NCBI GenBank assembly: GCA_038215615.1
Contig: JBBQQR010000005.1
Span: 66,152-130,151, forward strand
DNA length: 64,000 nt
Direction: 5' to 3'
Source of the DNA: Vulcanimicrobiales bacterium
Lineage (GTDB): Bacteria; Vulcanimicrobiota; Vulcanimicrobiia; Vulcanimicrobiales; Vulcanimicrobiaceae
This document shows positions 61,032-64,000 of this stretch, one piece after another. A program made the position numbers and the translations under genes. Each line of letters opens with the position of its first letter. Within the stretch, counting starts at the first letter, position 1. The notes below the pieces were generated by a model, which was not told the origin of the DNA, did not search any database, and saw only the letters and a list, made by a program, of their open reading frames with translations.

Positions 61032-61655
61032 CTATTTCGGGAAAATTACCACGCGGCGCTCGGGTTCTACGCCTTCGGACTCGGTGCGCACCAACTCGTT
61101 TTCGGCCAAAGCGATGTGCACGATCTTTCGCTCGGACGGCAGCATCGGTTCGAGCTTTTGGGGCGTCTTTTCGCGAACGCAGCGCTCGAGCGTCATCAAC
61201 GCCAAGTCCTTGAGTTGATCCGCGCGCCGTGCCCGATAGCCCTCGGCGTCGATCGTGTAGTATTTGCGGCCGGTCTTCACGCCGGCGTTGAGAATGTTGT
61301 TGAAGATCAAGTTCAGCGATTCGAGCGTGTTGCCGTGACGCCCGATGAGCATCGCCAAGTCCGGACCGGTCACTTCAAAGTACTCGCCTTCGGGTCGCGC
61401 GAGATAGCCGATCTCCGCGTGAGGCACGCCCATCTTTCCTAAGATCTCTTCGAGCAAAGCCCGCGCCGGCTTCGCTGCGTCGGGCATGGCGGTCTTGGCC
61501 CCACCGCGCGCCGGTGGGGCGCTGCGGCGCGTGCCGCTGGGCGGACGGCGTCCGCCGGAGCCGCCACGACGCACCCGCGTTCCCGTTCCGGGAATATCGC
61601 GGTCGCGAATCTCCGCGGGCTGCTGATCTTCGGGCTCGATGTCGTCTTCAAACAT
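61032..61655 (-). CDS. jag: Jag/KhpB-like KH-R3H RNA-binding protein
   Basis: LIGRHGNTL (KH), ERKIVH (R3H), S.G.EP.R. Position after yidC. Confidence 0.88.
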   Translation of the reverse strand: MFEDDIEPEDQQPAEIRDRDIPGTGTRVRRGGSGGRRPPSGTRRSAPPARGGAKTAMPDAAKPARALLEEILGKMGVPHAEIGYLARPEGEYFEVTGPDLAMLIGRHGNTLESLNLIFNNILNAGVKTGRKYYTIDAEGYRARRADQLKDLALMTLERCVREKTPQKLEPMLPSERKIVHIALAENELVRTESEGVEPERRVVIFPK

Positions 61656-61657
61656 AG

Positions 61658-62527
61658 CTACCTTCTTGCGCCTCTCTTTTTCTTTTTGTTTCTGCGCGAA
61701 CCGCCCCGCTGCTGGCCGGAGACTTCACCGTTGGCTTTGGGCAGCGCTTTGGTCTGCGCGTCCGCCGGCAAATCCGTGATCGCATGGAAGTCGTCCAGCG
61801 CCGAGAGCGGCTGGTGGTATTTGCCGAGCAGATAAAATTGTTGGCCCATCGTGAACAAGTTATAGGAAAACCAGTAGAGCACCATCGCCGACGGCCAATT
61901 GTAGCGAAGGCCCAAAAATCCGAGCATGAGCGGCGAGAAGATGGCCATGAGCTTCTGCGTCTGCGCCTGCTGCGGATCGGCTGACGGCATCGTGGCGTAG
62001 CGCGAGTAGAAATACATGGAGATCGCGTAGAGTAGCAGCAGCACGATGTCGGCTGCCGCTAAGTTCGGCGCGAAGATGTAGGCCTTCCATAAAAGCGGCG
62101 CTACGTGTTGCGTGAACGGGGCGCCGACCCACAGCCAGTGTTCGTTAGCGTAAAGATTCTTATGCGACCAGACAGCATAATAAACGCTGATGATAATCGG
62201 GTACTGCACGAGCATCGGCCAGCAGCCGGCCAGCGGATTGGCGCCTTCCCGCTTGTACAGCTCCATCGTTTCTTTTTGATAGCGCTGCGGATCGCTTTTG
62301 CCGTACTTGGTTTGCAGCGCTTTCATTTGCGGAGCGAGCTTTTGCATCTTGATCATCGACATGAACTGCTTGGTGTTCAGCGGCCACGAGATCAATTTAA
62401 ACCCGAGCGCGAAAATGACCAGACTCCAGCCGCGGCTATGTACGACGGAGTTGATCCCGTCGAGAATGGCGGTGATGCCGTTGACGATCGGATCCAGAAA
62501 CGCGTTGGTGGCGAAAATGAAATGCAC
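61658..62527 (-). CDS. yidC: Membrane protein insertase YidC (short form)
   Basis: LYKREGANPLAGCWP.LVQ.PI, PSA.VLYW. Confidence 0.93.
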   Translation of the reverse strand: MHFIFATNAFLDPIVNGITAILDGINSVVHSRGWSLVIFALGFKLISWPLNTKQFMSMIKMQKLAPQMKALQTKYGKSDPQRYQKETMELYKREGANPLAGCWPMLVQYPIIISVYYAVWSHKNLYANEHWLWVGAPFTQHVAPLLWKAYIFAPNLAAADIVLLLLYAISMYFYSRYATMPSADPQQAQTQKLMAIFSPLMLGFLGLRYNWPSAMVLYWFSYNLFTMGQQFYLLGKYHQPLSALDDFHAITDLPADAQTKALPKANGEVSGQQRGGSRRNKKKKRGARR

Positions 62528-62530
62528 GAT

Positions 62531-62746
62531 CTATCTCTCCGCTACGGGATCGAATCCGCCCGGATGAAACGGATGACAGCGGGCGAGGCGCGCGATTGCC
62601 ATCGCGCCTCCGCGAAACACGCCGTGTTTTTCACATGCCTGCGCAGCGTACTCCGAACAGCTCGGATAGAAGCGACACGCCGGCGGAAGAAGCGGCGAAA
62701 CCACAATCTTGTAAGCGCGCAGTGCGGCAACGGCGATCCGGCGCAC
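62531..62746 (-). CDS. yidD: Membrane protein insertion efficiency factor
   Basis: [21 protein letters not shown]. Confidence 0.95.
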
Positions 62747-63066
62747 TACGCTAACGCTCGCGAAAGTTCGGAACGCAGGTCACCATACGTTGCGGCAGCC
62801 GTCGAGGGGCGCGCGACGACCAAAATCCGGATGTGCGGATCGGCGGGAACGAGTTCGTGCAAAGCGGCCGCGATGCGGCGCTTCACTGTATTACGGATGA
62901 CGGCTTTGCCGACGGCGGTCGAAACGGTAATGCCCACGAGCGGGCGTTCCCCCTTGGGGGCGCCTTCGCCGCGGTAAACGGTCAAATTCGGGGTGGCCAT
63001 ACGCCGGCCGCGCTGCCGGAGGCGGGCGAAGTCCGCTTGACGGCGCAAGCTGGCAAAGCGTCGCAT
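62746..63066 (-). CDS. rnpA: Ribonuclease P protein component
   Basis: [17 protein letters not shown]. Confidence 0.92.
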
Positions 63067-63200
63067 CAGACGCTGAGGCGCTTGCGGCCCTTTCTGCGGC
63101 GGGCCGCGATGACGCGGCGGCCGTTTTTGGTGGACATACGTTCGCGGAAACCGTGGACGCGTTTGCGCCGGCGGTTATGCGGTTGGAAGGTCCGCTTCAT
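63066..63200 (-). CDS. rpmH: 50S ribosomal protein L34
   Basis: Manual translation [49 protein letters not shown] overlap with rnpA. Confidence 0.98.
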
Positions 63201-63255
63201 GAAGGAATGTACTCCTGGGAACGTGCCGCGGATGCACCCGCCGGCACAGCCACCT

Positions 63256-63285
63256 AGTATAGGGCCCGCACGACCGCAGCGTCAA
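63256..63285 (-). promoter_or_regulatory. Sigma70 promoter for the rpmH operon
   Basis: TTGACG-N18-TATACT. Confidence 0.75.
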
Positions 63286-63308
63286 GGGATTCGGGTGGTA
63301 CGCTCTCT

Positions 63309-63464
63309 TTAGCTGAACATGCTTCCGCACTGCTTGCAGTGGTGCTCGTCGGGATGCCTGCTATGGAAGTTGCTTGACTCGGTCGAGGGTTGACTCCAGC
63401 TCGAGTGCGCTGCCTGGCAATCTTCGCGCGTACCCGTTCCGGCGGGCTGTCCTTGGTCCGTCAT
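63309..63464 (-). CDS. 51-aa Cys/His-rich microprotein in the rpmH-dnaA intergenic region
   Basis: AGGAG SD 6 nt before the ATG. Sequence MTDQGQPAGTGTREDCQAAHSSWSQPSTESSNFHSRHPDEHHCKQCGSMFS. Has its own promoter upstream. Confidence 0.65.
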   Translation of the reverse strand: MTDQGQPAGTGTREDCQAAHSSWSQPSTESSNFHSRHPDEHHCKQCGSMFS

Positions 63465-63588
63465 GTGGGTCTCCTGTAAGAACATGGGTGGAGCCGCTTG
63501 GTTGTCTTAGTCGGTCGGCATTGGCCCGGGCCGGCCTTTTGTCAAACTCTTGCGTGGGAAATTAACATACTTTTTGAGAGGGCGGTCT

Positions 63589-63617
63589 AGTATATGCATC
63601 CGCGTTCCGGCCGTCAA
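63589..63617 (-). promoter_or_regulatory. Sigma70 promoter upstream of the 51-aa ORF
   Basis: TTGACG-N17-TATACT, the same hexamers as the rpmH promoter. Confidence 0.75.
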
Positions 63618-63638
63618 GCAAAGATTGAGAAACGGCCG

Positions 63639-63830
63639 CTCTCCACACTTGTGGAAAAGGCTGTGGACAGCGCGCCGCTGACGCTTGCTAGACTTGGGTC
63701 TAAAAGCCCGGCGCGACGGGCATTTTCCCGCCTGTCAATACATGTCAGGCAGCGGTGGAATACGTGTGTTTTGACCTGAAAAACCGGTGGTTTTACACCT
63801 GTGGATAAGTGGATAAGAATCTCTTAATTT
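63639..63830. other. DnaA-box cluster (oriC region and/or dnaA autoregulation)
   Basis: TGTGGATAA (63800-63808, perfect), AGTGGATAA (63808-63816), TGTGGAAAA (63650-63658), TGTGGACAG (63662-63670), CTCTCCACA (63639-63647). Lies between rpmH and dnaA. Confidence 0.82.
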
Positions 63831-63945
63831 ACCGCAGGATACGACCCCGATAGCGCCACCCTGTGCGCCTCCACGAAGGGACTACGCCGTTAGACTTTTG
63901 TCGACGGTGGAGTTCCAAACTAGACGACGACGGGACGGATACAGG

Positions 63946-64000
63946 ATGGCGCTTGCGGCTGGAAACACCGATATTTCCAATGAACTGTGGCAAACCGCAC
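63946..64000 (+). CDS. dnaA: Chromosomal replication initiator DnaA, 5' fragment
   Basis: MALAAGNTDISNELWQTA shows the ELW pattern of DnaA domain I. Divergent from rpmH, downstream of DnaA boxes. Only 18 codons are visible. Confidence 0.7.
   Translation, partial: MALAAGNTDISNELWQTA

Follow-up and report, generated by a model that had tools for sequence, protein, structure and literature searches.

In Escherichia coli, rpmH is preceded by two sigma-70-type promoters in series, and to our knowledge no coding sequence lies between them. The locus that we describe here differs in that its two promoter copies bracket variable cargo, which in the genome under study includes an open reading frame (ORF) of 51 codons. 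In Bacillus subtilis, the dnaA promoter region gives rise to ArrA, an RNA that DnaA inhibits and whose long form extends through rpmH (PMC12112137). Like the ArrA promoter as presented there, the distal promoter of our locus lies in the dnaA-rpmH interval, beside DnaA binding sites, and reads toward rpmH; unlike the transcript predicted here, which would carry a protein-coding ORF, ArrA is non-coding and antisense and overlaps the 5' UTR of dnaA (PMC12112137). A search of the literature for a small protein gene within the rpmH-dnaA interval led to this paper, whose abstract and passages on rpmH describe none.

The window analyzed here is a stretch of 64,000 nt from a member of the Vulcanimicrobiales, whose genome (G000) we compared with those of nine congeners (G001 to G009); 41 related genomes and 401 genomes of the phylum served as search sets. 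The reading that we consider probable is that the interval carries a real gene, though an optional one, whose product is a hydrophilic Cys/His protein of 51 residues, and that this gene is set in a cassette between two rpmH-type promoters at a junction subject to gain and loss. Such a gene would add to a poorly known, uncultured phylum a small-protein gene that is supported by comparison and that belongs to a family without a description.

Organization of the rpmH-dnaA interval

The interval between rpmH and dnaA spans 746 nt, with the ORF inside it. On one side, rpmH (63066-63200, encoding L34) is the first gene of a minus-strand run that continues with rnpA (62746-63066), yidD (62531-62746), yidC (61658-62527) and jag (61032-61655); on the other, the ATG of dnaA lies at 63947 on the plus strand. 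Reading toward rpmH on the minus strand, the sequence TTGACG-N17-TATACT (63617..63589; promoter A), which agrees with the consensus at 10 of 12 positions, is followed by a 5' leader (63465..63588, as seen in alignments with congeners), about 118 nt of which would be transcribed on the assumption that transcription starts some 7 nt after the -10 hexamer, near 63582. A ribosome-binding site, AGGAG (63475-63471), is separated by the six nucleotides ACCCAC from an ATG at 63464, and the ORF (63464-63309) consists of 51 codons plus TAA and specifies a small Cys/His protein that reads MTDQ...EDCQAAH...HHCKQCGSMFS. Its stop codon lies 23 nt (63308-63286) from the -35 hexamer of the proximal rpmH promoter, TTGACG-N18-TATACT (63285..63256, minus strand; promoter B), whose hexamers are identical to those of promoter A and whose spacer is 18 rather than 17 nt long. 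Four promoter-like sites occur between positions 62900 and 64000, where 50 shuffles gave 0.1 on average. Common only to the window and to congener G005 is a presence/absence cassette of ~234 nt (63286..63519, minus strand), made up of 45 nt of upstream sequence, the ribosome-binding site, the ORF and its 23-nt tail.

A scan that allowed at most two mismatches to TTATCCACA places three DnaA-like boxes (63639-63670, with one or two mismatches) 22-53 nt upstream of the -35 hexamer of promoter A, among them an inverted pair, TTTTCCACAAGTGTGGAGAG (63639-63658). On the plus strand, the promoter-like site TTTACA-N17-AAGAAT (63792..63820) overlaps two further DnaA boxes (63800-63816), one of them perfect and the other with a single mismatch, and is likely an autoregulated dnaA promoter. 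Nearly every element named in the original prediction was found in place: the promoter hexamers, a leader of about 120 nt, the AGGAG-N6-ATG arrangement, a 51-aa ORF with C-x3-H and HHC-x2-C, the 23-nt distance to an rpmH promoter with the same hexamers, a DnaA-like box about 20 nt from the -35 hexamer (the nearest, 63639-63647 with two mismatches, begins 22 nt away), and a GC-rich palindrome in the leader (63521-63534). The exception is a degenerate DnaA box that had been assigned to the leader (63553-63561); it reads TTTCCCACG, has three mismatches to TTATCCACA and does not rise above chance, and it is uninformative, since even at two mismatches the window contains 69 matches where 61 are expected.

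Selection on the probable small-protein gene and its relatives

In GC-rich DNA, an open frame of 51 codons means little by itself (43 ORFs of at least 20 aa overlap positions 61500-64000), and it is the comparative evidence that lifts this one above chance. A syntenic copy lies in G005, between the DnaA boxes and rpmH (L002, 1510-1668). Between the two ORFs there are 22 substitutions, of which 17 affect the third position of a codon (binomial p = 3.1e-5), and their sole difference in length is an in-frame 3-nt indel. By the method of Nei and Gojobori, dN is 0.063 and dS 0.84, a ratio of 0.075; for the same pair of genomes, the neighboring yidC, rnpA and yidD give 0.043, 0.084 and 0.18. When the other five frames are evaluated in the same way, four yield ratios of 1.1-3.9, and the fifth (0.13), which runs antisense with its wobble positions in common with the ORF, is interrupted by stops in the window copy. 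At the DNA level the ORFs are 86% identical, the far 5' leader being barely alignable, and the window protein is 88% identical to its 52-aa counterpart in G005 (P0001). The ribosome-binding site is kept in G005 as GAGGAG, 9 nt before the ATG, despite differences in the surrounding bases, and the GC content at third positions (0.73) lies within the range of the neighboring genes (0.64-0.80). These patterns show purifying selection on the predicted gene, all of the evidence for selection coming from one pairwise comparison, as there is only one close and one distant relative. Synonymous divergence between the window and G005 is higher in the ORF (pS 0.51, over the few sites, ~29, that are synonymous) than in the neighboring genes (0.27-0.35; 0.27 for both yidC and rnpA), which, together with the two leader backgrounds described below, hints at exchange of the cassette between lineages.

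Beyond G005, relatives are rare. A six-frame search of the 41 related genomes produced matches only in G000 (E 1.4e-37) and G005 (E 1.5e-25); the next best match (E 0.0015) contains an internal stop and lies elsewhere, in an unrelated location, and G036 gave a match at chance level only. A word-indexed search of 5.8 billion proteins returned P0001 alone, and a collection of 15 billion proteins has no entry identical to the window protein, whichever start is taken. When a profile of two proteins was searched exhaustively against 1.84 billion representatives, three proteins were recovered at E<=0.001: P0001 itself; a protein of 717 aa (P0002), which was set aside because its five repeats match 20 residues, in a short repeated stretch only; and P0003, which is Krac_7932 (EFH86626.1), a hypothetical protein of 66 aa from Ktedonobacter racemifer DSM 44963 (E 8.4e-5). 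BLASTP aligns P0001 and Krac_7932 without gaps over 41 positions, of which 21 (51%) are identical, and all five Cys and four His are aligned; the shared core can be written as CQAAH-x-S-C-x-QP-x-T-[ED]-S-x-C ... H-x3-HHC-x2-C-x3-F. Krac_7932 thus shares its Cys/His core with the G005 and window proteins, but it belongs to a different phylum, and its charged N-terminus is unrelated to theirs. A literature search by the name Krac_7932 found no paper.

A profile of the three sequences, run over the 401 phylum genomes, scored strongly in G000 and G005 only (2/401). Weak matches in four other genomes (G211, G186, G396 and G302; per-genome E 7e-4 to 8e-3 over 17-35 residues) were discarded: that in G186 overlaps a 447-aa ORF, apparently a GTPase gene, encoded on the other strand, and the remaining three were judged to be chance from their scores alone. 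Searches with tblastn gave one chance match among plasmids (inside rfbB, E 0.4) and none among phages; viral contigs likewise contained none, and metagenome contigs, besides that of G005, included no accepted relative, an 11-residue pattern match (L033) having been rejected because its frame overlaps a 464-aa ORF on the opposite strand. No second copy of the cassette was found in G000. By the sequence similarity of its core, the window protein falls within a Krac_7932-like family, unnamed and defined from three sequences, and as judged from these searches the family is uncharacterized and very sparse, with the window, G005 and Krac_7932 as its known members. K. racemifer is the one cultivable carrier of a homologue, through which the function of the protein becomes testable.

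The core of the family, with its five Cys and four His, is complete in G005, and the window copy keeps all four His and three of the five Cys (C16, C43, C46, H20, H37, H41 and H42), the second Cys having been replaced by Trp (C23W) and the third lost through a one-codon deletion. At the three core positions that can be polarized by Krac_7932 (C23W, the KC-to-S indel, and a G-to-R change), G005 agrees with Krac_7932 and the window is derived in all. The loss of two of the five family Cys fits relaxed constraint or early decay in the window genome, where the gene may be degenerating. Cys/His conservation and dN/dS, the checks suggested with the original prediction, favor the gene in the G005 copy (ratio 0.075); the ORF was not found in the other eight congeners, and two of the Cys are missing from the window copy itself.

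These losses are among the observations that would suit an alternative in which there is no functional protein, the ORF having opened by chance or being what is left of a gene in decay, and promoter A being no more than a second, distal promoter of rpmH whose leader is long. The abundance of open frames in GC-rich DNA, the absence of the exact sequence from the 15-billion-protein collection, and the existence of contigs that have both promoters, ~106-111 nt apart, without the ORF (G007, X3 and X10) would all be accommodated as well. We nevertheless regard it as improbable, given the third-position excess (17/22), the dN/dS of 0.075, the in-frame indel, the stops that break the antisense frames, and a homologue in another phylum with its Cys/His pattern aligned. 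The same codon-position pattern, ratio and indel, with the kept ribosome-binding site and the distant homologue, uphold the earlier proposal of a genuine small-protein gene: the ORF is very probably a genuine, previously unrecognized gene, and that it is coding seems to us highly likely.

The window protein is hydrophilic (GRAVY -1.29, pI 5.8) and has a low-complexity, variable N-terminus and a conserved Cys/His core toward the C-terminus. It has in common with the zinc-ribbon tails of ribosomal proteins and with metallothionein-like proteins a length of ~50 residues, a hydrophilic character, and conserved Cys and His residues that include a C-x2-C knuckle, but it differs from small metal-binding proteins in having a single such knuckle and no match in Pfam or NCBIfam. 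In a Pfam scan at E<=10, the window protein matched only GATA-N (E 0.017, below the cut-off) and P0001 and P0003 nothing; NCBIfam, PHROGs and PADLOC gave no match for any of the three proteins, and a profile search of the PDB returned only the eS31 zinc-ribbon tail, at chance level (E 0.16-2.1). Identification as a zinc-ribbon protein was rejected on these grounds, there being one C-x2-C only where a zinc ribbon has two knuckles (C-x2-C or C-x2-H). Bacterial metallothioneins constitute a Pfam family, and this assignment was likewise rejected, as the scan at E<=10 gave no match to that family. The zinc motif of ZAS-type anti-sigma factors is H-x3-C-x2-C; here the residue four before C43 is D39, with His at -1 and -2, and this candidate too was discarded. 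AlphaFold2, run on an alignment of two sequences, gave a model with a mean pLDDT of 51 and a pTM of 0.25, too poor at that pLDDT for a fold search, and the best feature scores in the ESM Atlas (0.85 for P0001 and 0.89 for P0003) belong to clusters that are all unnamed and serve as leads only. From the conserved Cys and His residues we infer, tentatively and as the simplest guess, that the protein could bind a metal ion of the Zn, Cu or Ni type.

Gain and loss at the oriC-rpmH junction

The ORF was not found in the eight congeners other than G005, among which G004 (56% complete) gave no match to the region. The stretch occupied by the cassette is skipped or replaced in G001, G002, G003, G006, G007 and G008. 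The first three of these have a single TTGACG...TATACT promoter, whose left flank corresponds to the oriC side of promoter A and whose right flank corresponds to the rpmH side of promoter B. In them, ~296 nt separate the twin DnaA boxes from rpmH, compared with 628 nt in the window; G009, at a coarser level of comparison, appears to be of the single-promoter type. In G007 the two promoters stand 107 nt apart and enclose no ORF, the leader resembling the 5' leader of G005, and in the X3 and X10 contigs, which come from soil and peat runs, 106-111 other letters replace 301-342 nt that include the ORF.

At the exact place of the ORF cassette, G006 and G008 have inserts of 3.3-3.4 kb that encode IS1-family transposases. 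The insert of G006 (3.25 kb; L029, G006:C14:7600-12100) is bounded by 43-nt inverted repeats and also encodes a STAND/AAA ATPase, recognized through weak PADLOC matches; in G008 (L030, G008:C5:77600-82100), 84-nt direct repeats of promoter A and leader, 94% identical, stand 3369 nt apart, and the insert also encodes P63C-domain and DUF3800 proteins (DUF3800_VII, PADLOC E 5.5e-20). Short direct and inverted repeats (10-17 nt) around the window's own cassette were judged to be chance, and there are no terminal repeats that would define a mobile element. The comparison of congeners shows that the predicted gene is patchily present and lies at an insertion hot spot, and that insertion and loss can recur at the oriC-rpmH junction, which is normally fixed.

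In the window, the 5' part of the leader resembles the leaders of G006 and G008 and the 3' 45 nt are common to G005. The 5' leader of G005, for its part, is like that of G007, but the 234-nt cassette (~63286-63519) is nevertheless common to the window and G005. In a tree of rnpA to yidC, G005 is sister to G006 (support 97/96), which is without the ORF, and the window genome falls in an unresolved clade with G002, G007 and G008. A cassette shared in the face of this pattern of leaders and tree indicates that it was either lost several times or exchanged between lineages.

A more far-reaching version of the optional-gene reading would make the junction between the oriC boxes and rpmH a cargo slot, set between two strong rpmH-type promoters and exchanging, between lineages, contents that range from the 234-nt cassette to IS1-type islands of 3.3-3.4 kb. 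The cassette would then represent a new family of metal-binding microproteins, enjoying origin-proximal dosage and a promoter beside DnaA boxes, and co-transcribed with the genes for L34, the RNase P protein and YidC. As a whole, we consider this version doubtful.

Two small features of the congeners were also seen at the junction. Directly after the left leader copy of G008 (L030:706-870, plus strand) there is a different ORF of 54 aa, with C-x2-C and H-x-H-x-C and unrelated in sequence to that of the window, for which Pfam offers only a RING-like zinc domain that stays below the cut-off (E 0.009). The short leader of G007 (L019) contains GCTAGCGTTGAC, which resembles the inverted-repeat tip GGTAGTGCTAGCGTTTG of the IS1-type element in G006 (L029) and could be the scar of an earlier insertion and excision.

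Predicted transcription of the cassette, and the DnaA boxes

The hexamers of promoter A are invariant in its five carriers (G000, G005, G006, G007 and G008), and the 17-nt spacer differs at many positions. Invariant hexamers around a changing spacer are what a working promoter looks like, and we regard promoter A as likely to be functional, in keeping with the prediction of a gene behind a promoter of its own. Promoter B keeps the same distance from rpmH in the aligned congeners. On the optional-gene reading, transcription would start at promoter A, the ORF would be the first cistron and be translated from its own ribosome-binding site, and the transcript would run on into rpmH-rnpA-yidD-yidC-jag, the encoded protein possibly binding metal through its Cys/His set. 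Since nothing resembling a terminator was found between the ORF and rpmH on the minus strand, promoter A probably also feeds the rpmH operon, of which it would be the distal promoter. The predicted transcript, which would start near 63582 and proceed to lower coordinates, should be clear of any dnaA mRNA that begins at 63792-63820, since promoter A is situated ~175 nt past the probable dnaA promoter and faces the other way.

The original prediction went further and proposed a zinc microprotein that couples the initiation of replication to ribosome or metal status and is possibly under the control of DnaA, which would act through the boxes 22-53 nt upstream of promoter A. Three DnaA-like boxes do lie just upstream of the -35 hexamer, the ORF appears to be a real gene with conserved Cys and His, and there is the precedent of the promoter in the dnaA-rpmH region of B. 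subtilis, which is inhibited by DnaA and yields a long transcript through rpmH (PMC12112137). But the inverted pair of boxes upstream of the rpmH-directed promoter is conserved, with small changes, in seven congeners (G001-G003 and G005-G008), and in G001, G002 and G003 the same boxes stand before a single rpmH promoter without any ORF, so that an effect of DnaA, should there be one, would belong to rpmH-directed transcription in general rather than to the microprotein. The rarity of the ORF, present in two of the 401 phylum genomes searched and missing even from G006, the sister of G005, the uptake of IS1-type elements by the site, and the three mismatches of the supposed box in the leader weigh in the same direction. 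Specific control of the gene by DnaA seems unlikely to us, and its coupling of replication to ribosome or metal status less likely again; this part of the prediction was not supported by the comparison, and with the link to replication control unsupported, the wider significance of the gene is modest.

The position of the ORF, between the distal and the proximal rpmH promoters and with no terminator-like site after it, would also suit a regulatory leader peptide, whose translation tunes read-through into the rpmH operon and which has no role as a peptide. In that case we would expect neither a conserved amino-acid sequence (dN 0.063) nor a homologue in another phylum, and most congeners do without the ORF. 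The leader shows no attenuator-like structure, its predicted fold (-25.4 kcal/mol) being no better than those of shuffles (mean -26.95, z +0.46), which gives no indication of a structured RNA, and an Rfam scan of 62900-64000 at E<=10 returned no leader family, only three chance-level matches far below gathering scores. We consider a leader peptide quite improbable. Least probable of all is a Cys-containing RiPP precursor matured by an enzyme encoded elsewhere, for although the small size, variable N-terminus and conserved, Cys-rich C-terminal core would be in character, the flanking genes, which in this comparison means the immediate flanks, are rpmH and dnaA, with no maturase adjoining, and no precursor family in Pfam or NCBIfam was matched.

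The palindrome in the leader has a second aspect when it is read on the plus strand, where it (63521-63545) forms a terminator-like hairpin followed by CCTTTTGTCA; as the terminator-like orientation is that of the plus strand, the hairpin is antisense to the ORF transcript, and G005 does not conserve it. Overlapping the palindrome, again on the plus strand, is a weak promoter-like site (63539-63568), where a second start for dnaA may lie.
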